Shown: positions 5,083-38,961, counted from the first letter of the stretch. The stretch is DNA of 64,000 nucleotides from an uncultured Clostridia bacterium (GCA_934141445.1 CAKPCF010000002.1:34752-98751), one strand, 5' to 3'. The notes: generated by a model not told the origin, from the letters alone. Translations and numbers: made by a program.

Positions 5083-5375
5083 CAAAAAAATAAAAATGAT
5101 ATTAAATGGTTAACAGACGTTTATTTGTTAAAAATTTCATGATTTAGTCCTGGCAATTTATAAATTTTTCTTGCTATAATTATTATAATTTTAATTTTAA
5201 TTAGTGTAATTTCGGTTTTTATTATAAAACAAAATAAGCAAATAAAAGAATATAAAGAAAGTTATGAGTATGGAAAAGAACAATTAGATATATACAAGAA
5301 AGCACTTGAAACATCAGGGTATAGAATAAAATTTAATAATAATGGAACTTATGAGTTAGTAAAAAAATAAAGGTA

Positions 5376-5406
5376 ATAAAAAATGGAGCTTTAAGCTCCA
5401 TTTTTT
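5376..5406. terminator. bidirectional rho-independent terminator
   Basis: aaaaaa-TGGAGCT-tta-AGCTCCA-tttttt, with stems at 5384-5390 and 5394-5400. Lies between convergent genes. Confidence 0.75.
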
Positions 5407-12023: not shown

Positions 12024-12119
12024 TATATTATATATTTAAAAATTTATCAATATTTTTTGGCAAAATATGAAATTGACAAAATAATTTTCTAATATTAAAA
12101 TAATTACGGAGGAATACTG

Positions 12120-13852: not shown

Positions 13853-16800
13853 ATGAAAGTTTTATTTGCAGTAAGTAGTGAAGAAATTTCTGAAAAGATA
13901 ATTAGAAGATATCAAAAAGAATATAAAGAGATATTATCTTATAAAAATGTTTATTACTTCAACGCAATATTAAAAGAGATACAAAAAGATAAAACTTATG
14001 ATCGAATTGTTATAAGTGAAGATTTAGAGCCTTTTGCAAATAATAATTACGATACAATAGATAAATTGATTTTTGATCGACTAGATAGTATTAGCGATGA
14101 AGCACATGATATGCAGGGAAAAGAAACTGCTATTATTTTAATCTGTACGGAAAGAAGAACAAAAGGAAGTTCTATATTATTAAAATTGTTTGGCATTGGA
14201 ATATACAATGCCTTATTAGGCAATGACAGAAGTATGGAACAAGTTTGCAAATTGATAAACAGACCAAGAGGAAAAAAGGAAGCAAAGCAATATTATCAAA
14301 TCGATACAGAAGAAGTTAATTATAAAGCCGAAAATGAAAATGAAGTTAGTGAAATGGAAATTCAAAATATATTAGCTCATTTTAAAAAGTTAGGTAGAAA
14401 TACAGAAAGATATGCAGAAAGTTTTAAGAGTATAGCTGCACAATATACTGATGAACAATTAAAAATAGTTATTAATTGTTTACCTATGAATGTAAAAGCA
14501 GTTCTAGAAGCAACTTCTCCAAAATATCAAGAGCTAATGTCTGTTTCTGGAAACATAAGACCAGAAGATGCAGCTAGTGTTGAAAAGAAAGTAAGAAATG
14601 CTGGCTTAAGAATTGATAATATTTCAAGTGCCGAAAAAAATCAAATGAATGGTCCAATTGTAATACCTTCAAATGTTCGTACTAATAAAAATGTAAGAAG
14701 TGTTGTTACAAATACAGAAAATGTTGTACAACCAAGACCTGTTGTACCAACAATAAATGCAAGAAGTAATGAAATTAGACAATCAGAGACTGTAAATAAT
14801 AATCAAACTATGCAACAAGAAGCAAGGCAAGTTGTAAGACCAAGAGTTGTACAACCAAGCATAAGAAAACCAGTTGAACCTGTTAGACCAGTTCAAAATA
14901 CTTATAATCAAATTGATGAAAGTAAAAATCAAAATTCAATTCAAGATGAAACAGAAGATTTTGATATGCTTTTACCTGGATTTGATGAAGTTGAAGTATC
15001 AGAAAAAGAAGAAATCCAAGAGAAAAAAGGAAGAGGAAGACCTAGAAAAATAGTTCCAGAAACAACTGAGGAAAAGCCAAAGGGAAAAAGAGGTAGACCA
15101 AGAAAGGTTGTTGAGGAAGCAGAAGAAGTATTACCTGGTGTAGAAGATACAACTGTTCTACCAGGACTAGATGATGAGTCTTTTGATGATAATATATTGC
15201 CAAATAATACACAAGATGATGATATATCAAGTTTATTACCAGGCTTTGAAGATGAAGATACAGGATTATTACCTGGACTTGAAGATGAAAAAGATAATAA
15301 AATACAAAATAATCAAACTGTTGAAACAAGAAATGTAAATACACCAAATATGCCAAGAAATACTATTAAGCAACCTGAAAAAGCTAAAATACAACCAATA
15401 GTAGCTGATGATGATATATCAAGTTTATTACCAGAAACTAATTTTGATGATGAAGATGAATATACTGACGAAGTTATGCTTCCAGGACTTGATGAGTTAG
15501 ATGATTTGGATGATATTCAAGATGAAGATAATATTGTACCAAAAACTACAAATAACATGCAAAATAATGTAAATGTACAAGAAGAACAAAAAGAATATGA
15601 AGATTTTGATGATGGATTATTGCCTGGATTAGATGGTTTTGATGAAGATGGAACTTTATTACCTGGAATGGGATTTGAAGATGAAAATCAAAATGTACAA
15701 CAACCGATACAATCAAATACTGTACAAAACAATAATATTCGTAAACCACTTCATTCATATACTGTTAAAAGCGGAGGATTGCGTCAAAAGAATATTCTAA
15801 ATCCTAAAACAACGAATACTGAATTAAACAATGATATTCAATTGGAAGATGATTTAGACTTGAATTATAATAATACTCCAAATGTAAATCAACCAGTATA
15901 TAATCAGAATAATTATACACAGGAGAATTCAACAAACTACAATACTTATAGTGATGAATATTCTAATAACTATGATAATAATTATGGAAAAGTAGACAGT
16001 TTAAAGCCAAAAGTTGATTACTCAATGTCAAGTTTGAATAGTTTATTGACTCAAGATAAAAAAATAGTTACATTTATAGGCACAACTAAAAATGGTACAT
16101 CTTTCTTAGTTAATAATATTGCTGCTATATTTTCATCTCTTGGAATAAATACAGCAATATTAGATATGACAAAAAATAGAAATTCATATTATATTTATAC
16201 AAAAAATGAAGAGGAACTTAGAAAAATTGCTTATAATTCAATGGAAAAATTAGAAAATGGATATGCAGAAGGAATTAAAGTTGACAAGAACTTAACAGTA
16301 TATACTGCGTTACCGAATGATGGAAAAGTATATACAAATGCGGAAGCGATTTTATCAACTTTAGTTCAAAATCACTCTGTAGTATTGATTGACTGTGATT
16401 TTGATACAGACCCAGGATATTTTGCAAGTTGCCAAGAAATATATTTAGTACAATCTTTAGATATTCTAACAATACAACCTTTAACAGCATTTTTAAGAGA
16501 CTTAAAAACTAAAGGTGTGTTAGAACCAGAAAAAGTTAGAGTTGTAATAAACAAAGATATGAAAGTAGGTAACTTAACAAATAAAGTAGTTATTGCTGGT
16601 ATGTCTTTCTATAATGACCCAGCTATGTCATTTATGACTGAGTTATTTAATAAAGATATGGTAAAATATTGTGTAATACCATTTGATGAAAAAGCATATT
16701 CAAAATATTTGGAAGCTATGGTAGAATGCAAAGTTTCATATAATAGCTATCCTTCAAACTTTATAAATAAGTTAAAAACACTTGGAGATATGGTATATCC

Positions 16801-16912
16801 ATTAACAAGTAAACAGGCTTATGGAAAACAAGCAAATAGTACAGCAAAAACAAATAATAATTTCTCAAACAGTATGAATAGTACATTAAATAAAATGAGA
16901 AAGAAATATTAG
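13853..16912 (+). CDS. pseudo-receiver + long acidic/low-complexity linker (AT-hooks, LPG repeats) + ParA/MinD/CpaE-like domain with degenerate P-loop
   Basis: The N-terminal ~150 aa is CheY-like in pattern but lacks the acidic pocket. The C-terminus has KKIVTFIGTTKNGTSFLVNN (deviant, shortened Walker A) and VVLIDCDFD (Walker B). The centre carries GRGRPRK and KRGRPRK AT-hooks and 8 [LVM]LPG[FLVM] motifs. Confidence 0.55.
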   Translation: MKVLFAVSSEEISEKIIRRYQKEYKEILSYKNVYYFNAILKEIQKDKTYDRIVISEDLEPFANNNYDTIDKLIFDRLDSISDEAHDMQGKETAIILICTERRTKGSSILLKLFGIGIYNALLGNDRSMEQVCKLINRPRGKKEAKQYYQIDTEEVNYKAENENEVSEMEIQNILAHFKKLGRNTERYAESFKSIAAQYTDEQLKIVINCLPMNVKAVLEATSPKYQELMSVSGNIRPEDAASVEKKVRNAGLRIDNISSAEKNQMNGPIVIPSNVRTNKNVRSVVTNTENVVQPRPVVPTINARSNEIRQSETVNNNQTMQQEARQVVRPRVVQPSIRKPVEPVRPVQNTYNQIDESKNQNSIQDETEDFDMLLPGFDEVEVSEKEEIQEKKGRGRPRKIVPETTEEKPKGKRGRPRKVVEEAEEVLPGVEDTTVLPGLDDESFDDNILPNNTQDDDISSLLPGFEDEDTGLLPGLEDEKDNKIQNNQTVETRNVNTPNMPRNTIKQPEKAKIQPIVADDDISSLLPETNFDDEDEYTDEVMLPGLDELDDLDDIQDEDNIVPKTTNNMQNNVNVQEEQKEYEDFDDGLLPGLDGFDEDGTLLPGMGFEDENQNVQQPIQSNTVQNNNIRKPLHSYTVKSGGLRQKNILNPKTTNTELNNDIQLEDDLDLNYNNTPNVNQPVYNQNNYTQENSTNYNTYSDEYSNNYDNNYGKVDSLKPKVDYSMSSLNSLLTQDKKIVTFIGTTKNGTSFLVNNIAAIFSSLGINTAILDMTKNRNSYYIYTKNEEELRKIAYNSMEKLENGYAEGIKVDKNLTVYTALPNDGKVYTNAEAILSTLVQNHSVVLIDCDFDTDPGYFASCQEIYLVQSLDILTIQPLTAFLRDLKTKGVLEPEKVRVVINKDMKVGNLTNKVVIAGMSFYNDPAMSFMTELFNKDMVKYCVIPFDEKAYSKYLEAMVECKVSYNSYPSNFINKLKTLGDMVYPLTSKQAYGKQANSTAKTNNNFSNSMNSTLNKMRKKY

Positions 16913-19983: not shown

Positions 19984-22900
19984 ATGAATGAATATGCATT
20001 AAAAATATTGGAAATAATTGAAACAAAATGGAAGCAAAGAAATAAATTTAAAGATAATTGCAAGGTATTATTACCTAAAATAGTTTTTTTGAATAATATG
20101 TATTATTTAGCTTATCCAATAGTTATAGAAAGTGAAGATTTTAAATATGAATTAAAAGACTGGATATATCAAGAATTGAAAAATCTAAGATTGCAGTTTT
20201 CTTTGAAAGACGAAAATGACTATATTGGAAAAATAGATATCAACAAAGATACTATAAAAAATTTATTTTCAAATGAGATATTAGATAAATTTTCAGATTT
20301 ATATAAGTATATTGCAACAATATTAACAAGCAAGAATAATAAAAAAATAGAAGATAATAAATTACAATTGCTAATAAATGAATATAATCTAGGATTAGAT
20401 GAAATTTCACAAAGATTAGTGTTGAAAATTTATAAAAAAGATGAATTAAAAGAAGAAAATGAAATTGATGAAACATCAAATAAAGTTGAAATTAGCAAAC
20501 AAAAAAGTGAAATAAAAGAAATCGATGATAAATATTCAAAAGAAACAAAGCAAATATTGGAAGATATTAAAGTTTTAGAAAACCTAGAAAAAGTTGATTA
20601 TAATTTTGAGTGGAATTTAGTGAGTGGATTAAGATTTGCTTCACTTGATTTTATTGAATTATGTATCACATTACTAAAAAAAGGTGAGTTTTCAGTAGAG
20701 CAGATTGTAGAAAATGATAGAAAAAAAATTAAAATCTTGACTAAAATAGGGGTATTATGTAATACAAGATTTTCTGAAGAGAAAATGGATGATGTAATTT
20801 TAAAAGAAAAAATTGAAAAAGGTGAGTTCATAAGTATAGCAAAAGGTTCGTTTATTTCTGAACCTGAAGCCTATGAAAATTTTTTGTGTGTAAAATGTAA
20901 ATTTAGTAAATGTCCTAAATTTTATGCAGGATATATCTTATATCTAAGAAACAAAGGTTTATTAGAAGATGTTTTAAAAGATAGAGAAGAATATAGAAGA
21001 AATACTTTTGAAAGTGATCTTTTTACAATTAAATGGGAAGTAAAAGATGGTGTAAAGAAGATTCCTAAAAAAACTTTTGACATAGCTTTAACTTTACTTG
21101 AAAATGATATGGTATTTGTTAATCAAATAATTAACCAAGATAAAAAGCTTTTATTTAGAATATTTTTACCTTTTTCTTGTAATACATATAAATTTATTTC
21201 AGATAGCATAGATGAAATATTAAAATATAAAAATGTGCATCCTAATGATTGGAGATATGTAACAAGAGCAAATGATAAATTACTATATAAGTGTGACATT
21301 TGGAGCTGTGCAATGCCTTATTGCATATTTGACGTTGCAGGATATCTTTTTTATTTGAAAAAAACTGGACAATTAAATAAAATTGATGAAGATAGAAAAT
21401 ATTATGAAGAACATAAGGATGAAATTGAAAGAGAAGCGGAGCAAGAACAAAAGGAACAATTACTCAAATTTGAAGAAGAATCAAAGCAAAAAAGGGAACG
21501 TGAAATTAAAAAAATATTAGAATACAAAAATAAGTCTGAAAATATTGAGCAATTAGTAGAAAAAATAAGCACTGAAAATGGATTACATATTACTATTGAA
21601 GGGGAAAGAGGTACTGGAAAAACAGAACTTGCAAATAGAGTTTGTGAATTATTAAAAGCATATAATAAAATTGATAATAGTACACCAGAATATTTAAGCA
21701 TTCATAATTTGGCTTTTAAAAATACATACGAATATTTGGAAATGCCTAATACTACAACTTGGAATGTAAAAGAACTTTCAATGCATAATAAACATTTATA
21801 TGTTTTAAGTGATATAAAAGAATTTATTGAAGAATATAAACACGTAAAAAAAATGAATAATGTTAGTTACTTAGGATTAAAAAGAATTAACAGAGTAATA
21901 GACTTAATCACATCTTTATTTGATGAAAACTATATTATTTTATGCTCAGATAGAAAATCAATTGATGAATTTTTAGCATTAGATTCGAAAATAAAATTTG
22001 TATATCAAAATAATAGATATGAGATTTCAAATTTACCAATTGATATTTTATTTGACGTATATTGTCAAAACTTGAATAAAGATTTGATTTTAAAATTAAG
22101 AAATGATAAGGCTCTTAAAGAAAATGTAAAAAATAAATTTATTGAATATGTGAGTATAAATGCAGAATTTTTCCCATTTCAAAATGAAGAATTAGCTAAA
22201 TATTTGGCAAATTATAGCATAAGTAAAAAAGATTTTATTATGCCGGATAATATTTATAGAAGGGAAACTGTTGATGAGAGTTTAGATAAAATAATAGGAT
22301 TAAACACTGTAAAGAAAAAAATTAAAGAATTTGAAAAATATGCATTATATACAGTAAAAGCTAAAAACTTAGGGCTAAAAATGAACAAATCAAATTTACA
22401 CATGATATTTACTGGAAATCCTGGAACTGGAAAAACAACTATAGCAAGAATTATGGCAAAAATGCTATATGATTTAGGCTTAGTATCTGAAAACAAATTG
22501 GTTGAAGTTGAAAGAAAAGATTTAGTCGCAAGTTACATTGGACAAACTGCACCAAAGACAGCAGAAGTAGTTGAAAAAGCACTGGGAGGAGTATTATTTA
22601 TTGATGAAGCATATACTTTAGCACAAGGGAATAAATCTGGAAATGATTTTGGAGCAGAAGCAGTTGCAACTTTAATCAAAGCAATGGAAGACCATAAAGA
22701 TGATTTAGTTGTTATATTTGCAGGATATAAAGATGAAATGAAAACATTTTTGGATATAAATCCAGGAATAGCGTCAAGAATTGGATATACTTTTAATTTT
22801 GAAGATTATACTAGTGACGAATTACTAGAAATGTTTTTTATGAAAATGGATAATATGGGATATTCTTTAAAAGAGAATATAAATAAAGATTTGTCTAAAA

Positions 22901-24426
22901 TTTTTGAATATTTTATTAAAAGAAAAAATTTCGGAAATGGTCGTTTTGTAGACAAACTAATTCAAGAAGTCGTTATGAAGCATGCTTTAAGAGAAACGAC
23001 AGATATACGAGAAATTACAATAGAAGATATTCCAACAATAGAAGATTTAAATAATGTAAATTATACTAATTATGATGCAAACCAAATGCTTGAAAAATTA
23101 GTAGGATTACAAGAATTAAAGAAAAAAATAAAAGAATTTGAGAATTATATAAAATTTTTAAAGAAAGCTGAAGAGCAAAACTTATCTATACCAATTCAAA
23201 ATTTGCATATGATATTTACTGGAAATCCTGGAACTGGAAAAACAACAGTAGCAAGGATTATTGCCAAAATTTTATTTGATTTAGGTATAATTCATGAAAA
23301 TAAATTAGTTGAAGTTGAAAGAAAAGACTTGATTGCTGGATATGTTGGACAAACCGCAATTAAAACTTCAGAAGTAATTGAAAAGGCAATGGGAGGAGTA
23401 TTATTTATTGATGAGGCATATACTTTAGCCCAAGGGAATAAATCCGGAAATGATTTTGGAGCAGAGGCAGTTGCAACTTTAATTAAAGCAATGGAAGATC
23501 ATAAGGATAATTTGATTGTTATTTTTGCAGGATACAAGGAAGAAATGGGAGAATTTTTAAACATAAATCCAGGTATTTCATCAAGGATTGGTTATATATT
23601 TGATTTTCCAGACTATACTGATGCTGAATATTGTGAAATATATTATAGAAAGTTGACTGCATTGGGATTAAACATTGAGGAAAGTGCAAAAAAAGATGTA
23701 AAAAAAGTTATGAAGTATTTTTGCAATGTAGAAAATAATGGTAATGGTAGATTTGTAGATAAAGTTGTACAAAATACTTTATTAAAATTGGCTACTAAAC
23801 AAGGTGATATTACAATTGTTACTAGTGATTGTGTGCCATCAATTCAAGAGATGACTAAAAATATGTTTGCTGGAGAAAGAATGATAAATCCAGAATTTAT
23901 AGATGAAGATTCTCAAAGACGAACTGCAATTCATGAAATTGGGCATGCTACTATAAGATATGTATTAGAGAAAACACCTGGAATTAAGAAGATTACAATA
24001 AATGCTGAAGGAACAGGCAGTTTAGGATATGTTGAATACAATAATTCTAATTTTAAATATACATCAAGTAAAAATCAATATTTGAATAGAATATGTGGAC
24101 TTTTGGGTGGTATGTGTAATGAAATTGTTTATTTAGGAGAGCATGAATCAGGTAATAGTAGTGATTTAAATAAAGCATCTAATATTGTAAAAAATATGAT
24201 TACAAGATATGGAATGTCAAGTTTGGGATTGTATACATTTCCTAATGAGAATGATATAGATAAATATATATATGAAGAAGCAAATAAAATACTTTCTGAA
24301 TGTTATGAAAAAACTATTCAAATTTTAAATAAAAATAAAGAGAAAACTCAAAAAGCAATTGAATATCTAATTGAAAAGAAGGAAATAGACGAGGAACAAT
24401 TTTTGAAAATTATGAAGGAAGCATAA
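19984..24426 (+). CDS. 1480-aa multidomain protein: Cys-rich duplicated N-terminal region + degenerate P-loop + two SpoVK/CbbX-type AAA+ modules + C-terminal FtsH-like M41 peptidase
   Basis: LHMIFTGNPGTGKTT(I/V)ARI...GGVLFIDEAYTL occurs twice. ITIEGERGTGKTELANR is an earlier P-loop. HEIGHA Zn motif at 23932-23946, followed by LGGMCNEIVYLGE...SDLNKASNIVKNMITRYGMS. No TM segment seen. Confidence 0.7.
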   Translation: MNEYALKILEIIETKWKQRNKFKDNCKVLLPKIVFLNNMYYLAYPIVIESEDFKYELKDWIYQELKNLRLQFSLKDENDYIGKIDINKDTIKNLFSNEILDKFSDLYKYIATILTSKNNKKIEDNKLQLLINEYNLGLDEISQRLVLKIYKKDELKEENEIDETSNKVEISKQKSEIKEIDDKYSKETKQILEDIKVLENLEKVDYNFEWNLVSGLRFASLDFIELCITLLKKGEFSVEQIVENDRKKIKILTKIGVLCNTRFSEEKMDDVILKEKIEKGEFISIAKGSFISEPEAYENFLCVKCKFSKCPKFYAGYILYLRNKGLLEDVLKDREEYRRNTFESDLFTIKWEVKDGVKKIPKKTFDIALTLLENDMVFVNQIINQDKKLLFRIFLPFSCNTYKFISDSIDEILKYKNVHPNDWRYVTRANDKLLYKCDIWSCAMPYCIFDVAGYLFYLKKTGQLNKIDEDRKYYEEHKDEIEREAEQEQKEQLLKFEEESKQKREREIKKILEYKNKSENIEQLVEKISTENGLHITIEGERGTGKTELANRVCELLKAYNKIDNSTPEYLSIHNLAFKNTYEYLEMPNTTTWNVKELSMHNKHLYVLSDIKEFIEEYKHVKKMNNVSYLGLKRINRVIDLITSLFDENYIILCSDRKSIDEFLALDSKIKFVYQNNRYEISNLPIDILFDVYCQNLNKDLILKLRNDKALKENVKNKFIEYVSINAEFFPFQNEELAKYLANYSISKKDFIMPDNIYRRETVDESLDKIIGLNTVKKKIKEFEKYALYTVKAKNLGLKMNKSNLHMIFTGNPGTGKTTIARIMAKMLYDLGLVSENKLVEVERKDLVASYIGQTAPKTAEVVEKALGGVLFIDEAYTLAQGNKSGNDFGAEAVATLIKAMEDHKDDLVVIFAGYKDEMKTFLDINPGIASRIGYTFNFEDYTSDELLEMFFMKMDNMGYSLKENINKDLSKIFEYFIKRKNFGNGRFVDKLIQEVVMKHALRETTDIREITIEDIPTIEDLNNVNYTNYDANQMLEKLVGLQELKKKIKEFENYIKFLKKAEEQNLSIPIQNLHMIFTGNPGTGKTTVARIIAKILFDLGIIHENKLVEVERKDLIAGYVGQTAIKTSEVIEKAMGGVLFIDEAYTLAQGNKSGNDFGAEAVATLIKAMEDHKDNLIVIFAGYKEEMGEFLNINPGISSRIGYIFDFPDYTDAEYCEIYYRKLTALGLNIEESAKKDVKKVMKYFCNVENNGNGRFVDKVVQNTLLKLATKQGDITIVTSDCVPSIQEMTKNMFAGERMINPEFIDEDSQRRTAIHEIGHATIRYVLEKTPGIKKITINAEGTGSLGYVEYNNSNFKYTSSKNQYLNRICGLLGGMCNEIVYLGEHESGNSSDLNKASNIVKNMITRYGMSSLGLYTFPNENDIDKYIYEEANKILSECYEKTIQILNKNKEKTQKAIEYLIEKKEIDEEQFLKIMKEA

Positions 24427-29956: not shown

Positions 29957-30023
29957 AATTATAGCAAACATATTTTTGTGTTTTGAAAAATATTAAATCT
30001 AATTTATAAGGTTGGTGGCTAGT

Positions 30024-31664
30024 ATGATAACAAGTTTACATATAAAAAATATAGGTATTATAGATGAAATAAATATTAACTTAAATGAAGGTTTTAATGT
30101 GTTAACAGGTGAGACTGGTGCAGGTAAAACTTTAATTATAGATAGTTTGCAAATTATTGCAGGTGGTAGATTTTCAAAGGAAATGATTAGAAGAGGAGAA
30201 AGTTGTTCTTATGTTGAAATGAGTTTATTTTTACCTGGGCAAGGTTTTGAAGATGATACTGTAATTGTTTCTAGAGAAATGAATATAAAAGGAAAAAATT
30301 TATGCAAAATAAATGGGAGACTTGTAACAGTTAGCGAATTAAAAGATTTTATGAAAAATATAATAGATATACATGGACAAAATGATAGTCAATCAATTTT
30401 AGATAATAGTACACATATTGAACTTATAGATGGATTTGCAAATAAAGAAATTAAAGATGTAAAAAATCAATATACAGAATTGTTTAAACAATATCAAGAA
30501 ATAAAGAAAGCTTTAAATGAAAACTATGGAGATGATAGAGAGAAACAAAGAAAATTAGATTTACTAAAATACGAAGTAGAAGAGATAAGAAATGCTGATT
30601 TGAAAATTGGAGAAGAAGAGGAAATCGAAGAAAAAAGAAAACTGATTAGTTCATCTGAAAAAATAGCAAATAATTTACAAGAAGCAGAAATGCAAATTAC
30701 AGAAAATGTAATTGAAAATTTGAATATGGCAATAAGAGCAATGGAAAAAATTGAGAGCTACAAAGAAGAATATGGTACATTAGTTGGTGAATTGAAAAAT
30801 TCTTACTATGAGCTACAAGAGGCTGCCAGAGATATATCAAATAATAGAGAAGATGTGTATTTTGATGAAGAAGAACAAAAAGAAATTGAAGAAAGATGGG
30901 ATTTAATACATTCTTTAAAGAGAAAATATGGCAATACAATAGAGGAAATTTTAAATTATGAAAAAGAGAAATCAATAGAAATAGAGCAGATAGAAAATTT
31001 AGATGAATATATATTAGAACTTAAAAATAAGCAAAGTAAAATAGAAAAAGATATGAAAAAAATAGCTTTAGAATTACATAAAATTCGTGAAAAATATGCT
31101 AATGTTTTATCAGAACAAATCAATAAAGAATTACAAGATTTAGAAATGAAAAATGCAAAATTTAGTGTTGAATTTGAGAATTTTGAAGGTTCTGTTTTTA
31201 ATAAAGATGGATTAGATAAACTGGAATTTATGATTAAAACAAATGTTGGAGAAGAGGCAAAACCACTTACTAAAATTGCTTCTGGTGGCGAAATGTCAAG
31301 AATAATGCTTGCTATTAAAAATGTTTTAGCAGATGTAGACAAAGTACCTGTTTTGATTTTTGATGAGATAGATACAGGAATTAGTGGTGTTGCCGCTAAT
31401 AGTACAGGAGAAAAAATGAAGTCAATTTCTAAAAAACATCAAGTAATTTGTGTAACTCATCAAGCAAGTATAGCTGCTAAAGGTGACTATAATTATTACA
31501 TTTCAAAAGAAGTTGTAAATGAAAAAACAGCTACAAAAATTAAATTATTATCAGAAGAAGAAGTAATAAAAGAAATTGCAAGGATAGCCAGTGGCACTAT
31601 TAGTGAAGCTTCTATAAATCATGCAAAAGAACTAAGAGGAAGAAAATTAAAATTAGTTGTATAA
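30024..31664 (+). CDS. recN: DNA repair protein RecN
   Basis: MITSLHIKNIGIID..., Walker A LTGETGAGKTLIIDSL, long coiled coil, and C-terminal ASGGEMSRIMLAIK...LIFDEIDTGISG. Confidence 0.9.
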   Translation: MITSLHIKNIGIIDEININLNEGFNVLTGETGAGKTLIIDSLQIIAGGRFSKEMIRRGESCSYVEMSLFLPGQGFEDDTVIVSREMNIKGKNLCKINGRLVTVSELKDFMKNIIDIHGQNDSQSILDNSTHIELIDGFANKEIKDVKNQYTELFKQYQEIKKALNENYGDDREKQRKLDLLKYEVEEIRNADLKIGEEEEIEEKRKLISSSEKIANNLQEAEMQITENVIENLNMAIRAMEKIESYKEEYGTLVGELKNSYYELQEAARDISNNREDVYFDEEEQKEIEERWDLIHSLKRKYGNTIEEILNYEKEKSIEIEQIENLDEYILELKNKQSKIEKDMKKIALELHKIREKYANVLSEQINKELQDLEMKNAKFSVEFENFEGSVFNKDGLDKLEFMIKTNVGEEAKPLTKIASGGEMSRIMLAIKNVLADVDKVPVLIFDEIDTGISGVAANSTGEKMKSISKKHQVICVTHQASIAAKGDYNYYISKEVVNEKTATKIKLLSEEEVIKEIARIASGTISEASINHAKELRGRKLKLVV

Positions 31665-31965: not shown

Positions 31966-32403
31966 ATGGGAAAACATAACTCAAAATTTGAAAAATTTAA
32001 AGAATTAAAGTTTTTAAATCCGAATAAATTGTACATATTTGAGAATGGAGTTTTCTATATAACTTATAATGAAGATGCAGACAAAATGAAAGAAGTATTT
32101 GGCTTTGTAGTTAAGCAAATGGGAAGTATATATAGAAAATGTGAATTTCCAGTACAATATTTTGAAAGATATGAAAAAGCTTTGAAACTAAAGAAAATTG
32201 ACTATGAAGTAGTAGCAGTAACTAAGAAAAAGAAGAAGATAACAGCTGATGAACTAGACACTCAACATAGTGAATGTAGTAACTTGATGCATCTAGAAAT
32301 TCTTCAGATAATTCAAAAAGCAGATTTATCAAAAATAACACCAATTCAAGCTATGAATATTTTATTAGAAATGCAAAATAGAGTAAAAAATTCCAAACTC
32401 TAG
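31966..32403 (+). CDS. MutS-domain-I-like mini-protein (DGR-adjacent, MSL-like)
   Basis: 145 aa. LYIFENGVFYITYNEDADKMKEVFGF...CEFPVQYFERYEKALKLKKIDYEVVAV parallels this window's own MutS N-terminus (ILFYRIGDFYEMFYDDALVASREL...[27 protein letters not shown]). The tail LSKITPIQAMNILLEMQNRV parallels the MutS C-terminus LNELTPIDALNTLAKMKEML. No ATPase domain. Confidence 0.55.
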   Translation: MGKHNSKFEKFKELKFLNPNKLYIFENGVFYITYNEDADKMKEVFGFVVKQMGSIYRKCEFPVQYFERYEKALKLKKIDYEVVAVTKKKKKITADELDTQHSECSNLMHLEILQIIQKADLSKITPIQAMNILLEMQNRVKNSKL

Positions 32404-32465
32404 AACTGTAATTAAAAGCTATTGGTAAAAAAGATAACAAAAAGTAAAAAATATGAAATAAAAAA

Positions 32466-32516
32466 CCTTAAGTGTAGAAATTATAAATACTTTAATTTCT
32501 GTACTTAAGGTTTTTT
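32466..32516 (+). terminator. strong rho-independent terminator after the MutS-like ORF
   Basis: 17-bp stem CCTTAAGTGTAGAAATT / AATTTCTGTACTTAAGG (two G-U pairs), 11-nt loop, then T6. Confidence 0.8.
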
Positions 32517-32815
32517 ATTATTTACTAAAATTCTAACATTGAGCCAGTTTAAAGTCAATATAAAAATATAAAAAGTTGAAAAATATCAGTTTTTTTGTTC
32601 GACAAAAATTGCAAAAATATTGAGTTTTCAACGATTTTGCCCACTTCAATTCTTCCTTAAGTACAGAACTTAACGAAGGATAGAGGTGGTTTTCCCTCTA
32701 GCAAGCAAGACTTTCCGAATAAATTGTATATGCAATTTATTGTGTTTTGTTTTTATGGATTTTTGGAGAAAGGCCTACCCCTTTCTCCAACTTAAATTAT
32801 ACAGAGGAGGAAAAA

Positions 32816-33565
32816 ATGATGAAAAGAAAATTAGAAATTACTTTATTTATCTTTTTAGTAGTGATAGCGGTTTTAACAATAAATAGTGAAGCAGCTTATC
32901 AATCAAGACCAGGTTTTTCAGCTTTAGTAAATACAACATCAAATAGCTTTTTTGAAAATATAAGAAAAATGGAATCTAAAGATGGTCCTATGGGATTAAG
33001 TGCAGAATTTACAGTTACTGATACAGAAGTAAAAGAAACAACAGCATCAAATAATATAGATGTCCATATGATAAAAAATTCTGAATGGGGTGCAGCAGTT
33101 CTTCTTGCAGCATCTGGATATGGTGCAGGAACAGATGGTGAAGCAGGAACATATACAACAGGTTCTAGTAATTATACAGGAATTTACGGTATGGGAAATG
33201 GCAACTGGGAATATACAGCTAGTTATTGTGTACAAGGTGGTTCTACAGCTACAGGAAATTCAAATGTTAGAAGCATATTACATAGCTATGCTAATAGTAA
33301 TTCAAAGTATGTAGATGTATATAGAAATCCAAATAACCAGGTAACGGCAGATTATGATACTTTTGCTAGTAAGAACAATCACATCAAAGGTGATGCACTA
33401 GTTGAAGTTATGGGCTTACACAGCGGCAATTTGTACCTTGTTACTACGGACGTTCCCGTATTCGTACGTGGCAGCGGTGGTGTCTTTGCTTTCTATAGGT
33501 ACTTTGGTTATGGCGACAGCTACTTCACTTCGCGTGCGGTGGCTGTGTGCGGAGCTGGACTTTAA
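32816..33565 (+). CDS. secreted DGR variable (target) protein, C-type-lectin/FGE-like fold inferred
   Basis: ATG at 32816, 5 nt after GAGGAGG; the track ORF start at 32747 lacks an RBS. Signal peptide MMKRKLEITLFIFLVVIAVLTINSEA. Motifs NSEWGAAVLLAASG, GIYGMGNGNWEY and VFVRGSGGVF resemble the EWEYAARGG / GLxDMxGNVWEW / RGGSW blocks of FGE-type DGR targets. The last 47 codons are the VR. Confidence 0.85.
   Translation: MMKRKLEITLFIFLVVIAVLTINSEAAYQSRPGFSALVNTTSNSFFENIRKMESKDGPMGLSAEFTVTDTEVKETTASNNIDVHMIKNSEWGAAVLLAASGYGAGTDGEAGTYTTGSSNYTGIYGMGNGNWEYTASYCVQGGSTATGNSNVRSILHSYANSNSKYVDVYRNPNNQVTADYDTFASKNNHIKGDALVEVMGLHSGNLYLVTTDVPVFVRGSGGVFAFYRYFGYGDSYFTSRAVAVCGAGL
33422..33561 (+). repeat. DGR variable repeat (VR)
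   Basis: 140 bp, offset exactly 201 nt from TR. 125 of 140 positions are identical and all 15 differences lie opposite TR adenines. The 3' 48 bp are invariant and GC-rich. Confidence 0.92.
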
Positions 33566-33571
33566 GCACTG

Positions 33572-33613
33572 CACCTTGTGATTTGAGAGGCGTGTAGAAA
33601 TTCAAATCAGGTG
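33572..33613 (+). other. hairpin immediately 3' of VR (candidate DGR target-recognition stem-loop)
   Basis: CACC-ttg-TGATTTGA ...15 nt... TCAAATCA-GGTG. Starts 11 nt after the VR end. Confidence 0.5.
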
Positions 33614-33622
33614 TTACACTGA

Positions 33623-33762
33623 AGCGGCAATAAGAACCTTGTTACTACGGACAATCCCGTATTCGTACGTGGCAGCGGTGGTGTCTTTGCTTTCAATAGG
33701 AACAATGGTAATAGCAACAGCAACAACACTTCGCGTGCGGTGGCTGTGTGCGGAGCTGGACT
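33623..33762 (+). repeat. DGR template repeat (TR)
   Basis: Non-coding copy of VR. In the VR frame it reads SGNKNLVTTDNPVFVRGSGGVFAFNRNNGNSNSNNTSRAVAVCGAGL, with the AAY-rich codon usage typical of TRs. Confidence 0.92.
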
Positions 33763-33785
33763 CTTGTGTGAAGGTTTTATTTTCT

Positions 33786-33817
33786 AAAAATTTTACTTAT
33801 TTATAAGTAAAATTTTT
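33786..33817 (+). terminator. A/T-rich 14-bp hairpin downstream of TR (terminator-like)
   Basis: AAAAATTTTACTTA-ttta-TAAGTAAAATTTTT. Confidence 0.4.
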
Positions 33818-34082
33818 AAAAGTAATTATAGTGATTTTCATAATAATATAAATTTTAAAATTCGCAGTTTAATATTTAGTAATATATGAAAAAATAAATG
33901 GACCTAAATTTCTTTAATTATGAAAATAAAAGATTTAGGTGGAGCAAAGTTTAAGGACTTTACTGATTAGATTTTTCACACACAAAAGAAGTGTAATTCC
34001 TTCCTTTTTGGTAAAAATTTGAAAGGAGTAGTACAATGCAAGTAAAGGAAACTTGAAAGTGATGTACACATAATTAAATAAA

Positions 34083-34442
34083 ATGGCTAAACAAGATACA
34101 AGATTGATTATATACGAAAGATTAGTAGATTTAATTTTTTATTCTAAAAATTTATTAAAAAAATTTCCAAAATCTGAAAGATTTGATTTATGTGCAGACA
34201 TAAAACAAGCTTTATACAAAGTATTAAGATTAGTAATGTATTCTTGGAAAGAGAAAGATATTGAACAAAGATATCAAAATTTAAAAGAAGCAGATATAGA
34301 AATTTATGTATTAAAAACATTAACAAGATTGTCTTATATGGATAGATATATTACAGAACAAAACTATATGACATGGAATAATCACCTTTCTGAAATAGGA
34401 AAGATGTTAGGTGGGTGGATAAAAACATGTCAAAAAGGGTAA
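34083..34442 (+). CDS. avd: Avd-like accessory variability determinant (four-helix-bundle / 23S rRNA-IVS protein family)
   Basis: 119 aa. LIIYERLVDLIFYSKNLLKKFPKSERFDLCADIKQALYKVLRLV matches the FPK.ER signature of the family. Overlaps the RT start. Confidence 0.8.
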   Translation: MAKQDTRLIIYERLVDLIFYSKNLLKKFPKSERFDLCADIKQALYKVLRLVMYSWKEKDIEQRYQNLKEADIEIYVLKTLTRLSYMDRYITEQNYMTWNNHLSEIGKMLGGWIKTCQKG

Positions 34443-35464
34443 ATAATATATTTTTACAAAAGATAAAATTTAAAAATATATATGCCGCATATAGAAGAGC
34501 ATCAATTCTAAAACATAAAAATAGAGAAGTGATACTGTTTGAAATGGACTTAGCTCAAAATTTATATGATATATTAAAAGATTTATATTTTCAAAGGTAT
34601 AAGCCAGGAATATATCGAAAATTTGTTGTATATGAACCTAAAAGAAGAGAAATAATGTCACTTCCATTTAGAGACAGAGTTGTTCAACAATGGTATGTGG
34701 AAGAATTTATAAGACCAATTTTTATTCCAAAATTGATAGTAGATACTTATGCTTGTATTCCAGGTAGAGGCTTACATCATGCAATTCATAAACTACAATA
34801 TTATATGCAAAAAATGAAAAAAGAAAATGAAGATTTTTATATTTTAAAATGTGATGTTGCAAAATTTTTTAACAATATTCATAAAGATATTTTATATGAA
34901 ATTATAGAAAGAAAAATAAAAGATAAATATTTTTTAGAGTGTACGAAGCATATTTTATTTGATGGAACTTATAAAGTTGGAATACCAATTGGAAATTATA
35001 CTTCACAATTTTTTGCAAATATATATTTGAATGAACTAGACCATTTTGTTAAAGAAAAATTAAAAATTAAATATTATGTTAGATATATGGATGATTTTAT
35101 ATTATTGCTTCCTAATAAAGAAAAGGCTATTGAAATAAGAAAAGAAATAGAAAGCTTTTTAGATACAAGATTAAAATTAGCATTAAATAGAAAAACAAAT
35201 TATTTTAAAAATAAACAAGGAGTAAGTTTTTGTGGGTATCATATTTATGTTCACAAAATTGTTTTACTAAATCAAAACAAAAAGAAAATATACAAAAGAG
35301 TAAAGCATTGGAATGAATTATATGCGAAGGGTGAATTAGATATGTTTGAAGCAGCACAAAGCTTAATAGCATGGATAGGACATGCTAGTGCAGCAGATTC
35401 TTACGAATATATAAATAAGATAAAAAACAAATGTGATTGGTATTACAAAGGAGATATAAAATGA
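34427..35464 (+). CDS. DGR-type reverse transcriptase
   Basis: Motifs RREIMSLPFRDRVVQ, CIPGRGLHHA, LKCDVAKFFNNI, the DGR-diagnostic IGNYTSQFFANIYLNELD, YVRYMDDFILL and GVSFCGYHI. Start is ATG 34427 (or GTG 34415), inside the avd 3' end. Confidence 0.9.
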   Translation: MSKRVNNIFLQKIKFKNIYAAYRRASILKHKNREVILFEMDLAQNLYDILKDLYFQRYKPGIYRKFVVYEPKRREIMSLPFRDRVVQQWYVEEFIRPIFIPKLIVDTYACIPGRGLHHAIHKLQYYMQKMKKENEDFYILKCDVAKFFNNIHKDILYEIIERKIKDKYFLECTKHILFDGTYKVGIPIGNYTSQFFANIYLNELDHFVKEKLKIKYYVRYMDDFILLLPNKEKAIEIRKEIESFLDTRLKLALNRKTNYFKNKQGVSFCGYHIYVHKIVLLNQNKKKIYKRVKHWNELYAKGELDMFEAAQSLIAWIGHASAADSYEYINKIKNKCDWYYKGDIK

Positions 35465-37953
35465 AAGGAAAGAAGGCTAAATTAAGCAATCATCAAGGAA
35501 TCACTCTTATCGCTTTAGTTATTACAATAATAATTATGTTGATTTTAGCAGGAATAAGTTTAAATGCAACGATAGGTGATAATGGAATTATTAGTAAGGC
35601 AAGAGAAGCTAAGTTTAAACAAGCTTTGTCTTCATATAAAGAACAAGCAGATGCTTATGTATTAAATTACAATATGAATAATGACATTGGAATTGGTGAA
35701 GAGTCTACTTTATATTCAGGAGCACTTCGAGAAGCTGGAAAAGAAAATGACACTACTGGAATATACAATGATATATATACGAAGCATTTTAAGGATTTAA
35801 AGAAACTATCAGAAGGTTCTAGTACTGGAACAATTTCAAATACTAGCATTGATGAAGTGATTCCAGATATGGAAAATTACTATAAAAAACATGTTGGCGT
35901 TGAAAATGGAACTATGATGTGGTTTGCTGAAAAAAGAGATGATGAAGAGGTACAATGGGCTTTGGAACTTGGTGTATCAGTATTTATCGAAGGTGTAGGA
36001 AAGGTTTTACCAGATGGAAGCTATCAAATATATTCAAAGGGTGAATATGCAAATACAATGGGAACTTCTGGTACATATTGTGCAGAGCCAGATTTAACAG
36101 GCTTTAACACAGCAACAACATATTACATTGAATATGAATCAGATAATCAAAGCAGTAACTCTGGAAACCCAATTTATTTAAATGTACCAGATAATTGGTA
36201 TGACTATGGTAATCAAAGATGGGCAAATATTGCAACAGTTAATGACTGTCAAATGACATATTGGACATGGATACCAAGATATGTTTATAAAGTAGATGGA
36301 AATTCAATTGATTGTAAATTTGTAAATACATCTAATGTTTGTATTGGTACAGATGGACTTGAAATTGATGTTTCAGACTATATTTTACCAAGTGCATTTA
36401 CATTTGATGGAAAAGAACTTTCTGGAATTTGGGTAAGCAAATATGAAATATCAGAACCAGTACATCCAACAGGATTTTCTGCTACAACAGATAAAGACAG
36501 TATAACAATTCAAAGTGTTACTACAATTGGCTCAAGTACACCAGGTGGAGAAAATCCAATCGGAAAAGATGTAGAAATACATATAAGTGGAAATGGATTT
36601 GATAAAACAATTTCACATGTTGATTTACCATATAAAATTGAAGGTTTGTCACCAGATAAAACATATAAAGTTGAAGTTGAGACACCTACATTTTATGAAT
36701 CTAGAATGACTTTATCAAGAGAACTTACAACACCAGAAGGTACTGTAAATGAAATTGCAAATCCAGACTTTACAGGATTTAATACAGACACTACATATTT
36801 TCTTGAATATGAAGAGGACAATAAAACAGCAAAAATTGGAGAAAAAGTTCAAACAACAGTTGATTCAATTGATACATCAAAATTAGTTGCATCAAATGCT
36901 CCAACAAATTGGTATGATTATACAAAAAAAAGATGGGCAAATATTGCTACAATGACATCTGATGGTAAAGTTGCATATTGGACTTGGGTTCCAAGATATA
37001 AGTATAAAGTTATCGAATCAGATGATACAGTAGATTGTATTTTTGTAAGTAAGAGCAAAACAAATTCTTTATTAGGTTCATTAACTGATAAATATGTAAT
37101 TCCATCAGCATTTACTTGGGATAGCAAAGAACTTTCTGGAATATGGGTTCTAAAATATGAAGTTACTCTTGCAAAAGAACCAACAAGTTTTGTTGTACAA
37201 GCAGGTTCTAATGAAATAAAAATAACAAGTGTTTCATACACAGGTTCAGGAGGAAATTTACCAACTGATGGATATACATTGAATGTTACTGACAAAGCAA
37301 CAAATAGCAAAGTAATAAATAATTCAAGTATAAGTATTGGTTCAAATGGATACACAATTACAGGTTTGTCTGCTGGACATACTTATGATATAGAGCTAAC
37401 AGCCCCAATGGTATATAATGATGCAAATGGCAGTAAGCAATATAAGAAATTGACCAGAACTGTTTCAACAATAGGAAATGGTGAAGGTACAGCTAATGTG
37501 CCAAATTTAGATGGATTCAGTAAAGAAAATACATATTATGTTGTATATAGTAGTAATAAGCAAAAAGCTTTATTAGGAGATAAAGTTGAATATGATTCAA
37601 ACGGTAATCCTACAAATGCTCCAACAGACTGGTATGATTATGGCGCAAAGAGTTGGGCAAATATTGTTACAATTACAGCAGATGAAGGTAAGAATTTGAA
37701 TTTGACAAAAGGTATGGAAATTGGCTCAATAAATACAACATATTCAAAGATGGCTATGTTTGTTTGGGTACCTAGATATGAATATAAAGTAGATGAAACT
37801 TCTGATTCAACAGATATAATATTTATTTCAGCTAGTAAGAAAAATGCAGATAGCGGATATACAATTCCATCAGCATTTACTTGGGGAGACAAGGAACTTT
37901 CAGGGTATTGGGTATCTAAATATGAAGTGACAGAAATAAATAATGAGAATTAA
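35461..37953 (+). CDS. 830-aa pilin-like-anchored surface protein with three repeat modules separated by FN3-like spacers
   Basis: The ATG overlaps the RT stop (ATGA, 35461-35464) and follows the RBS AAAGGAG. N-terminus MKGKKAKLSNHQG/ITLIALVITIIIMLILAGISL is prepilin-like: Gly at -1, but no Phe at +1 and no Glu at +5. The module ...NWYDYxxxxWANI..T...YWTW(I/V)PRYxYKV...D(C/I)xF(V/I)...IPSAFTWxxKELSGxWVSKYE(I/V) occurs three times (36085-36453, 36763-37167, 37501-37932). Confidence 0.7.
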   Translation: MKGKKAKLSNHQGITLIALVITIIIMLILAGISLNATIGDNGIISKAREAKFKQALSSYKEQADAYVLNYNMNNDIGIGEESTLYSGALREAGKENDTTGIYNDIYTKHFKDLKKLSEGSSTGTISNTSIDEVIPDMENYYKKHVGVENGTMMWFAEKRDDEEVQWALELGVSVFIEGVGKVLPDGSYQIYSKGEYANTMGTSGTYCAEPDLTGFNTATTYYIEYESDNQSSNSGNPIYLNVPDNWYDYGNQRWANIATVNDCQMTYWTWIPRYVYKVDGNSIDCKFVNTSNVCIGTDGLEIDVSDYILPSAFTFDGKELSGIWVSKYEISEPVHPTGFSATTDKDSITIQSVTTIGSSTPGGENPIGKDVEIHISGNGFDKTISHVDLPYKIEGLSPDKTYKVEVETPTFYESRMTLSRELTTPEGTVNEIANPDFTGFNTDTTYFLEYEEDNKTAKIGEKVQTTVDSIDTSKLVASNAPTNWYDYTKKRWANIATMTSDGKVAYWTWVPRYKYKVIESDDTVDCIFVSKSKTNSLLGSLTDKYVIPSAFTWDSKELSGIWVLKYEVTLAKEPTSFVVQAGSNEIKITSVSYTGSGGNLPTDGYTLNVTDKATNSKVINNSSISIGSNGYTITGLSAGHTYDIELTAPMVYNDANGSKQYKKLTRTVSTIGNGEGTANVPNLDGFSKENTYYVVYSSNKQKALLGDKVEYDSNGNPTNAPTDWYDYGAKSWANIVTITADEGKNLNLTKGMEIGSINTTYSKMAMFVWVPRYEYKVDETSDSTDIIFISASKKNADSGYTIPSAFTWGDKELSGYWVSKYEVTEINNEN

Positions 37954-37962
37954 GGTGAATTT

Positions 37963-38217
37963 ATGCAAAAAGTAATTGAATTTATAAAAGAAAATAAAAA
38001 AATTGTAATTATTATATGTATTTTATTGGTTGTAGTATTTTCTATTGTAAAAATAAACAAGAAAAAGAGAATATCTGAAAATATAGCAAAAGAAAATGAG
38101 CAATTAAGAATTGAAGAAGAGGCAAGAAATAATAGACAATATAATTCTGATATGTTAGAAAATAATATAGAAGAAGATATTGGTACATCAGAAGATGATA
38201 TACAAATGTTCAATTAA
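37963..38217 (+). CDS. small single-pass membrane protein
   Basis: 84 aa, TM segment IVIIICILLVVVFSIV, acidic tail. Last gene before the terminator. Confidence 0.5.
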   Translation: MQKVIEFIKENKKIVIIICILLVVVFSIVKINKKKRISENIAKENEQLRIEEEARNNRQYNSDMLENNIEEDIGTSEDDIQMFN

Positions 38218-38224
38218 AATATAA

Positions 38225-38263
38225 AAAAGAAGGTGGTAATTTAAAATGTTACCACCTATTTTT
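38225..38263. terminator. bidirectional terminator between the DGR block and sigK
   Basis: aaaaaaga-AGGTGGTAA-tttaaaatg-TTACCACCT-atttttt. Confidence 0.8.
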
Positions 38264-38961
38264 TATTCTTTAATTTCTTTAGCCAATTTTCCAATTGCCT
38301 TTGTTTCAATTCTTGAAACATAAGAGCGACTGATATCTAACATTTCTGCAATCTCTTTTTGAGTTTTAGGTTTATCACCTTTTAAACCAAATCTTAATTC
38401 AATTATAGTTTTTTCTCTATTTTTTAAAACTGTTTTAATTTTTTCATATAAATTTTTAACTTTTAATTTTAAATCTACCTCATCTTCAACATTTTTTTCA
38501 TTTATTTCAAGAATTTCTTGAAGAGTAACAACATTATCATCTTTATCTTTTCCAACTGGTTCATTTAGGAAAACTTCAGAATTTCTTTTTTTATTACTTC
38601 TTAGAAACATCAATATTTCGTTTTCAATACATCTTGCTGTATATGTAGCTAATTTTATATTTTTTTCTGTATTAAAACTATTGATTCCTTTTATTAAACC
38701 AATAGTACCAATTGAAATTAAATCATCAGCATCAATATTTGTATTATTGTATTTTTTTGCAATATGTGCAACTAATCTTAAATTATGTTCAATTAAAATA
38801 TTTCTAGCAGATTCACTACCAGATAACATTTCTTCTAAATACTTTTTTTCATCTTCAGCACTTAAAGGCTCTGGAAATAAACTACTGCTTTGAATATAGC
38901 CAAAACCAAAAATCATTTCAGACAGAAAATTCCAAAAAGTTTCTAATGTAAAGACAAGCAT
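38263..38961 (-). CDS. sigK: sporulation sigma factor K precursor (pro-sigma-K), uninterrupted
   Basis: Hydrophobic pro-sequence, then FPEPLSAEDEKKYLE...NILIEHNLRLVAHIAKKY...DLISIGTIGLIKGINSF...KLATYTARCIENEILMFLR...ISRSYVSRIE. Close to B. subtilis SigK as recalled from memory. Confidence 0.85.
   Translation of the reverse strand: MLVFTLETFWNFLSEMIFGFGYIQSSSLFPEPLSAEDEKKYLEEMLSGSESARNILIEHNLRLVAHIAKKYNNTNIDADDLISIGTIGLIKGINSFNTEKNIKLATYTARCIENEILMFLRSNKKRNSEVFLNEPVGKDKDDNVVTLQEILEINEKNVEDEVDLKLKVKNLYEKIKTVLKNREKTIIELRFGLKGDKPKTQKEIAEMLDISRSYVSRIETKAIGKLAKEIKE

Follow-up and report, generated by a model that had tools for sequence, protein, structure and literature searches.

A three-module, pilin-like protein encoded with a diversity-generating retroelement in an uncultured Clostridia bacterium: a candidate stalk for the diversified lectin

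Four classes of accessory gene have been described for diversity-generating retroelements (DGRs), namely Avd, HRDC, MSL and CH1 (Wu et al. 2018; PMC5758913). Among DGR variable proteins, TaqVP (PDB 5VF4) and TvpA are single-domain proteins that fold as C-type lectins (CLec), of the subtype named for formylglycine-generating enzyme (FGE) (PMC6328139). The Type V pilus DGR encodes variable CLec pilins together with anchor and stalk pilins, Avd and Msl (bioRxiv 10.1101/2024.11.15.621889). Modular type IV pilins, such as S. sanguinis PilB and PilC, CofB and GspK, are a further point of reference (PMC8179133). Here we describe a DGR in a 64,000-nucleotide stretch of DNA from an uncultured Clostridia bacterium (GCA_934141445.1 CAKPCF010000002.1:34752-98751; hereafter the window). 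Its reverse transcriptase (RT) gene is followed by a gene for an 830-amino-acid (aa) protein with a pilin-like N-terminus and three copies of an uncharacterised module. We lean towards the view that this protein and the DGR target are the two halves of an adhesin system encoded by two genes, the 830-aa protein being its stalk on the cell surface.

The Type V pilus DGR is alike in being a cellular system of gut bacteria, in combining Avd with a MutS-like accessory and in placing a CLec head gene beside genes for surface display. It differs in having a pilin as its variable protein, which enters a lipoprotein-primed pilus of diderm cells covalently or through strand exchange. In the window, by contrast, the putative head is a small Sec-secreted CLec protein, its neighbor is a multi-module protein resembling type IV pilins, the lineage is monoderm Clostridia, and the RT is coupled to the gene for the candidate stalk. 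Our literature search returned no description of such a gene or of the GITLIALV leader motif, and the combination of DGR, pilin and Clostridia retrieved only unrelated work. The initial annotation, a first reading of the window from its sequence, had regarded this accessory component as undescribed; it is indeed absent from the four classes of Wu et al. We rate the kind of system, a DGR-diversified surface adhesin, as known, and its split form with a pilin-like stalk as new.

The cassette occupies 31966-38267 on one strand of a chromosome with 26% G+C, between recN (30012-31664) and an opposite-strand sigma-70-family gene (38263-38961). Its features are as follows.

31966-32403, + strand: MSL (MutS-like) accessory, 145 aa (Pfam MutS_I, E 6e-8)
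32816-33565, + strand: DGR target, 249 aa, secreted, with a Sec-type signal peptide and a TaqVP-like CLec domain
33422-33561, + strand: variable repeat (VR) at the 3' end of the target; a 140-nt repeat, 89% identical to the template repeat
33623-33762, + strand: template repeat (TR), 140 nt, 35 adenines
34083-34442, + strand: avd, the bAvd four-helix-bundle accessory (Pfam bAvd, E 1e-23)
34415-35464, + strand: DGR reverse transcriptase (RVT_1, E 3e-17), overlapping avd
35461-35640, + strand: pilin-like N-terminus of the 830-aa protein, with a basic leader of 13 aa that ends in Gly, followed by ITLIALVITIIIMLILAG, after which the helix continues as amphipathic
35641-36084, + strand: N-terminal domain with no assigned fold, about aa 61-208, with family-conserved W166, C167, G186 and Y188
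36085-36453, + strand: module 1, aa 209-331, from the module alignment and family hidden Markov model (HMM)
36454-36762, + strand: spacer 1, fibronectin type III (FN3)-like by sequence pattern only, its length conserved across the family
36763-37167, + strand: module 2, aa 435-569, the copy modeled by AlphaFold2
37168-37500, + strand: spacer 2, borderline fn3
37501-37953, + strand: module 3 (aa 681-824), followed by a tail of 6 aa and the stop codon, from the module alignment and family HMM
37963-38217, + strand: small single-pass membrane protein, 84 aa, starting ten bases after the preceding open reading frame (ORF)
38231-38267, + strand: intrinsic-terminator-like hairpin (38231-38257) and T tract, closing the operon

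The locus is a genuine DGR of the Avd and MSL type. All 15 mismatches between TR and VR fall at TR adenines, RT and avd lie beside the TR, and the VR forms the last 47 codons of the target, at the C-terminus of its CLec domain. The avd product scores 93 bits against NCBIfam DivGenRetAVD (cut-off 80). As in the described architecture D, which pairs Avd with MSL, the MSL gene, target, TR, avd and RT follow one another on one strand; the published classes do not include the pilin-like multi-module gene or the small membrane ORF downstream of the RT (PMC5758913). The MutS_I ORF is present again in three related cassettes (L005, L007 and L009). There it lies downstream of the multi-module gene, and in the window upstream of the target, so that its position is fluid.

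The coupling of the RT to the 830-aa ORF (35461-37953; N-terminal start MKGKKAKLSNHQGITLIALVITIIIMLILAG), as first annotated, is present: the RT stop codon TGA (35462-35464) is overlapped by an ATG at 35461, giving ATGA, and an AAAGGAG motif of the ribosome-binding type lies 7 nt 5' of that ATG. The small membrane protein ends the operon as had been proposed. The hairpin right after it is the sole terminator-like site between 31600 and 38400. Equivalent ORFs of 77-89 aa lie directly 3' of the multi-module gene in L001, L005, L007 and L011; within this DGR-linked subclade their position is kept, and their sequence loosely so (FI.(E/D)(N/H)KK plus a transmembrane segment). The small protein may aid the anchoring or assembly of its large neighbor.

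The three modules of the 830-aa protein are real and lie where the initial annotation had placed them. They share 47-57% pairwise identity with module 1 and 45 invariant columns, including the strings WYDY, WANI, PRY.YKV and PSAFT..KELSG.WV.KYE, and the family HMM finds exactly three copies in the protein, each at E about 1e-41. They are not cryptic VRs, because the TR has no further copy anywhere in the window. Pfam and NCBIfam searches with the 830-aa protein and the target yielded only a borderline fn3 and a sub-threshold N_methyl match; PHROGs gave no match for either protein, and searches of PDB sequences with the whole 830-aa protein and with the module profile returned nothing. Pfam searches with 58 modules at E up to 10 gave no consistent family and no FGE-sulfatase. 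By these profile searches the module is an uncharacterised domain family without a Pfam model. It occurs in 1-7 copies per protein; at E up to 1e-3 the family has 2801 representative clusters, and at 1e-10 it has 1134. The N-terminal domain between helix and module 1 has no Pfam or PDB match beyond the helix. As for the spacers, the FN3-like label is borderline for spacer 2, where fn3 (aa 574-648) scores 24.8 bits and the cut-off is 25, and has no Pfam match behind it in spacer 1; PF00041 is precomputed in some homologues.

We then turned to the genes beside these proteins in relatives. For the 830-aa protein 482 homologues are detectable, and hardly any of them carries a Pfam annotation. Genomic contexts came from exact protein look-up and from a metagenome scan with the family alignment, and 101 loci were searched with the window cassette proteins, the module HMM and the target HMM. 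The sampled metagenome loci are the best 80 of at least 429, a non-random sample and not a census. Homologues of 35-91% identity directly follow the RT in six further distinct loci, and five of these lie in chromosomal settings unlike that of the window; this bears out the assignment of the gene to the DGR cassette. Two RT-linked loci are syntenic with the window (L001, L011); others lie by a Mur ligase and GAPDH (L005/L006), by serine recombinases and UvrA (L007/L008) or by spoIIID (L009/L010), and L034 is RT-linked as well. A distant three-module relative (~28% identity; L032) lies 0.7 kb from fragmented pieces of an RT. Where identity drops to about 30%, RT and Avd are usually missing from the neighborhood.

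The constant neighbor is the target. A target homologue lies beside the multi-module gene, on the same strand, in all 24 loci with both flanks visible. These neighbors are 28-45% identical to the window target, rising to at most 91% in L001 and L011, which are near-identical relatives. At loci lacking a DGR (L002, L003, L022-L031, L035, L038, L049 and L065), the gap between the two genes is under 150 bp in 13 of 15 (the frameshifted L035 has 332 bp), or else they overlap; the target may be upstream or downstream. At DGR loci (L005, L007/8, L009, L011, L032 and L034) it is 1.6-2.8 kb upstream, with TR, avd and RT in between; the target of L001 is cut by a contig end and was left out of the spacing. 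About one-third of the paired loci in this non-random sample have Avd and RT between the two genes, and the remainder have no DGR. Eight loci showed no target-like gene, and each of them is truncated: a contig end comes no more than 300 bp from the multi-module gene or, for L010, no more than about 1 kb upstream of avd, the expected place of the target.

L007 (5375-6788), L008 and L032 (8458-9536) have a truncated Avd and an RT broken into several short ORFs, beside an intact target and multi-module gene. The DGRs here seem to be decaying, with the two genes left in place, and the pair therefore outlives the DGR. L007 is flanked by two large serine recombinases. The initial annotation had placed the 830-aa protein in the RT operon and proposed to test its co-occurrence with the RT clade. 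That link gives way to another, since most relatives have a target-like neighbor and no DGR; as far as gene neighborhoods tell, the protein is a partner of the target, not of the RT. A role as an accessory factor of retrohoming was considered and rejected, the protein being predicted to be exported and mostly found without any RT.

The two partners are also found as one polypeptide. Twelve ORFs in the fetched loci have one module directly followed by a target-type CLec domain. Those of the Clostridia type (L051, L058, L075 twice, L076, L078 and L084) share the GITLIALV leader; such proteins are many, about 500 aa long, and begin with a pilin-like leader as in the 830-aa protein. A search with the module and CLec part of the L051 protein found 5432 proteins at E up to 1e-3, and the best 120 of these are nearly all fused, ~400-680 aa long and aligned over more than 90% of the query. 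The fused form is therefore the common one, and the split three-module form in the window is derived from it. Two fused relatives sit singly amid housekeeping genes. One protein has three modules and then one fused CLec domain (P0097), and another has modules with no CLec partner in cis (P0014). For modeling, a composite alignment of the P0097 module and CLec parts was dropped, as MAFFT had stretched the targets over module columns, and a natural fused protein was used.

The fusion extends beyond Clostridia. A Candidatus Nomurabacteria metagenome-assembled genome of the Candidate Phyla Radiation (CPR) encodes a 434-aa module and CLec protein beside ribosomal protein genes (L012, 1393-2697), with no pilin-like leader visible and no DGR in the flank. 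Four phage contigs (L016-L019) carry baseplate and tail genes, Avd and RT, followed by a tail-fiber target that joins a module, a CLec domain with the VR, and immunoglobulin (Ig)-like domains. In L016 (3965-7315; IMG/VR), as in L017-L019, this DGR target has one module, the CLec domain and Ig/Hoc-like domains; this phage type is likely an evolutionary source, or sink, of the module-CLec unit. In L076, a second FGE-like protein (12107-13078; ..GGFWIGRYEAG.. ..IYDIAGNVWEWT..), with a sub-threshold Pfam FGE-sulfatase match, is encoded 0.5 kb downstream of the fused pilin-like gene.

Comparison with the fused proteins indicates where the window genes are divided. The target has a predicted signal-peptidase site at about SEA/AYQSRP, and it lacks an anchor motif, consisting only of the signal peptide and the CLec domain. 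Directly after that site, the DGR-linked target homologues P0121-P0150 have a conserved mature N-terminus, (A)YQ(S/V/I)RP. In alignment, AYQSRPGFSAL... pairs with a fused segment, ..VQVKPxVxSWRxI.., which comes after the closing WVxKYE(A/V)(S/T) strand of the module and a conserved linker of ~20 residues. The target N-terminus thus begins after the module end, so the gene split lies at the junction of module and CLec domain; and since the module precedes the aligned segment, the target lacks the module part rather than sharing it. Fourteen 90%-identity clusters of targets (P0122-P0135; 240-262 aa, mostly 242) are each 71-74% identical to the window target, and this excess is probably one orthologue split by VR hypervariation.

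Structure prediction points the same way. Module 2, modeled from 58 sequences, is all-beta (pLDDT 87, pTM 0.77). Foldseek found nothing significant for the module alone, with TaqVP as the best match (E 0.89, TM-score 0.23). When module and target profiles were compared with hhalign, the probability was 0.07% (E 0.72, 13 columns); the two are therefore not homologous, and the equivalence drawn by the initial annotation between the PSAFTW.. string of the module and the RPGFSAL.. segment of the target does not stand. A likeness of the module to the first FGE strands also went undetected, in Pfam with the 58 modules and in Foldseek with the module alone. The proposed likeness of IPSAFTW..WVSKYEVT to the first strands of FGE domains would agree with the consensus of that family; as none of the profile searches picks it up, it stays a lead.

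The fused protein P0151 gave a different result. Its model (55 sequences, 521 residues) reached a pLDDT of 86.3 and a pTM of 0.77; pLDDT is at least 87 from residue 130 through the linker between module and CLec domain to the end, and the first ~125 residues are low-confidence helices. From the pTM we infer that module and CLec domain are placed as one rigid body in the model. Foldseek matched the model to TaqVP at E 1.5e-8 and probability 1.0, over 451 alignment columns against the 381-residue structure. Next came PvdO (E 5.6e-5), ToxD, EgtB/OvsA and PorK, all FGE-type folds, and in a viral library phage tail (collar) fiber and SUMF-like proteins, the tail fibers at E about 1e-7. Pfam FGE-sulfatase stays below threshold in the fused proteins (17 bits against 23.3). 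Only the module plus CLec domain, not the module alone, matches TaqVP and other FGE-type folds. The length of the Foldseek alignments suggests that module and CLec domain together correspond to a whole TaqVP-type domain, with a presumed match of residue ranges. The window target is like TaqVP by sequence: its family profile matches 5vf4 at E 3e-4 (and SUMF2 weakly), and its VR is at the extreme C-terminus. The difference is that TaqVP is one polypeptide, whereas here the target would be the equivalent of the C-terminal part and the preceding module is encoded three times on a separate protein.

The initial annotation had suggested a scaffold that displays or docks the diversified protein. Strict adjacency to the target gene and the fused homologues lend this idea strong comparative support, and on balance we favor, by a little, a stalk and head encoded by two genes. 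The Sec-secreted, anchorless target would bind the modules non-covalently and so rebuild the module-CLec unit of the fused proteins. Each stalk could then present, in as many as three identical copies, the head variant that the DGR has written at the time. Its N-terminal helix would keep it in the membrane, with the leader either uncleaved or removed by a prepilin peptidase; a cleaved stalk might be a tip or minor subunit, since it lacks the Glu5 that packing within a filament needs. Through its tight coupling to the RT gene, the stalk would be co-expressed with diversifier and head. Keeping the target in a separate 249-aa gene would hold mutagenic retrohoming off the large stalk gene and still give multivalent display. 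The most specific form of this proposal, in which a TaqVP-like unit is split over two genes and a free CLec head rewritten by the DGR snaps non-covalently onto three front-half modules, we put forward tentatively, as possible.

Several points weigh against a docking stalk. Adjacency and fusion, as comparative evidence, prove functional linkage and not docking. The module folds confidently alone and need not require a CLec partner, and the three modules of P0097 against its one CLec domain mean that modules can stand unpaired in cis. Three heads per stalk is a guess. Other points concern the N-terminus. Glu5 is a hallmark of assembling pilins, needed for packing within the filament, yet position +5 is Ala, Ser or Val, never Glu, in about 190 N-termini of the three-module and fused families. 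Pfam N_methyl (PF07963 / IPR012902) reaches 15.3 bits against a gathering score of 21.2. Finally, pilus machinery, which the initial annotation had proposed to look for in the genome, did not turn up in the parts scanned. The six cassette proteins and 39 other window ORFs of at least 100 aa gave no Peptidase_A24, T2SSE or T2SSF, and the homologue flanks examined encode neither a prepilin peptidase nor a pilus ATPase.

The points on Glu5, N_methyl and machinery also count against the first rival, that the protein is a true modular type IV pilin, cleaved after Gly13 by a prepilin peptidase encoded elsewhere and incorporated by a machine of the Com or type IV pilus type, probably at the tip, with the head on the filament. 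The class III-type (prepilin) signal of the initial annotation is present. The N-terminus reads MKGKKAKLSNHQG before and ITLIALVITIIIMLILAGISL after the predicted cleavage site. A class III signal peptide has a short hydrophilic leader ending in Gly or Ala and then about 21 hydrophobic residues, and the leader, Gly-1 and hydrophobic tract of 20 residues agree with this pattern. The window protein has Gly-1, Ile+1 and Ala+5. Among the 100 recognisable N-termini of the three-module family, Gly occupies position -1 in 90 and Ala in 7; Ile is invariant at +1, and 90 have Ala at +5. In the fused family +5 is Ala or Ser. A profile of the first ~205 residues (19 members) matches type IV pilins only, among 177,635 PDB sequences: Geobacter PilA-N (E 2.6e-4), S. 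sanguinis PilE1 (E 5e-3), PilA and MshA, in alignments that span the leader, Gly-1 and alpha1.

Other likenesses to pilins are fainter. GspG and PpdD-like pilin models match 11 and 9 of the 19 members, respectively, all far below curated cut-offs, and ComGC matches weakly. A pilin has an alpha1 helix of about 50 residues and then a globular beta-sheet head; the fused homologue is modeled with helices at 12-36 and 41-71 and then a small alpha/beta domain, at a pLDDT of only 40-78 over the N-terminal 80 residues. Modular pilins with grafted adhesive modules are known and have been proposed to sit at the tip (PMC8179133), and the window protein shares with them the basic leader ending in Gly, the hydrophobic alpha1N, a predicted long helix and grafted non-pilin modules presumed to be adhesive. 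Those pilins have Glu5, a recognisable IPR012902 motif and dedicated machinery, whereas here Glu5 is missing, the motif is sub-threshold and the genes are scattered amid housekeeping genes, never in a pilus operon. The grafted modules, too, appear from the comparisons above to be docking sites for a second protein and not the adhesin itself. On this balance we hold a true pilin to be rather unlikely. Separately, in L043-L101, dozens of otherwise unrelated proteins share only their first ~60-100 residues, at ~50% identity, with the pattern basic leader-G-ITLIALVITIIVLLILAG-..GDNGII..A.EA.FK. By its sequence this N-terminus looks like a widespread, Glu5-less, pilin-like export or anchor module of gut Clostridia surface proteins.

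A second rival keeps the two products apart: the modules would bind external ligands, and the gene would merely be co-transcribed with that of a secreted lectin, related in function but physically separate. The autonomous, confident folding of the module agrees with this, as do its 1-7 copies per protein in about 2800 representative clusters and the modules of P0097 and P0014 that have no CLec partner in cis. It leaves unexplained, however, the constant target-like neighbor in every locus with both flanks visible and the dominant contiguous module-CLec architecture with its conserved, confidently modeled linker, and it gives no account of how an anchorless secreted lectin stays with a monoderm cell. 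We consider such an independent adhesin improbable.

That the locus is a domesticated or decaying phage tail-fiber locus, with both proteins as remnants of a receptor-binding protein, is very improbable: L016-L019 do carry Avd and RT and then a tail-fiber-like target of module, CLec and Ig domains, the fused model does match phage tail (collar) fiber proteins, and integrase or recombinase genes do flank L007 and L009, but no phage structural genes accompany the window locus, whose neighbors are recN and a sigma factor gene, the gene pair recurs in five distinct chromosomal settings, the Sec signal peptide and the pilin-like membrane leader of the proteins suit cellular export over virion assembly, and neither window protein has a PHROGs match.

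Elsewhere in the window, a 1480-aa ORF (19984-24426) has AAA+ matches starting near residues 516, 807 and 1075, of which only 807-916 is a full Pfam AAA match, and a C-terminal Peptidase_M41; it is an unusually long FtsH-like protease. At 4147-7747, a Replic_Relax protein and an opposite-strand, 780-aa ORF like a TraG/TraD-type coupling protein may be the remnant of a conjugative element. The neighbors of a 1019-aa ORF (13853-16912) with no Pfam match at E up to 1e-5 are a GGDEF protein and a cell-wall hydrolase of the G5/SH3/glucosaminidase type.

Many DGRs of gut Firmicutes have small secreted CLec targets whose location and partner are, to our knowledge, not known. The locus described here supplies a specific, testable partner for such a target. 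It points to a design principle in which one small diversified gene is combined with multivalent display on a separately encoded stalk. It also draws attention to a module family that spans Clostridia, CPR bacteria and phage tail fibers and consistently precedes TaqVP-like lectin heads, and it flags a very large set of Clostridia surface proteins with a Glu5-less, pilin-like leader. If a TaqVP-like unit is indeed split between stalk and head, the system would be a multivalent, exchangeable, hypervariable adhesin with a docking principle that has not been described for any DGR, and the family of ~2800 clusters would be a dedicated CLec-docking domain of Clostridia surface proteins and phage tail fibers. 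If docking holds, the pair of module and head would be a natural scaffold for displaying binders evolved by DGRs.

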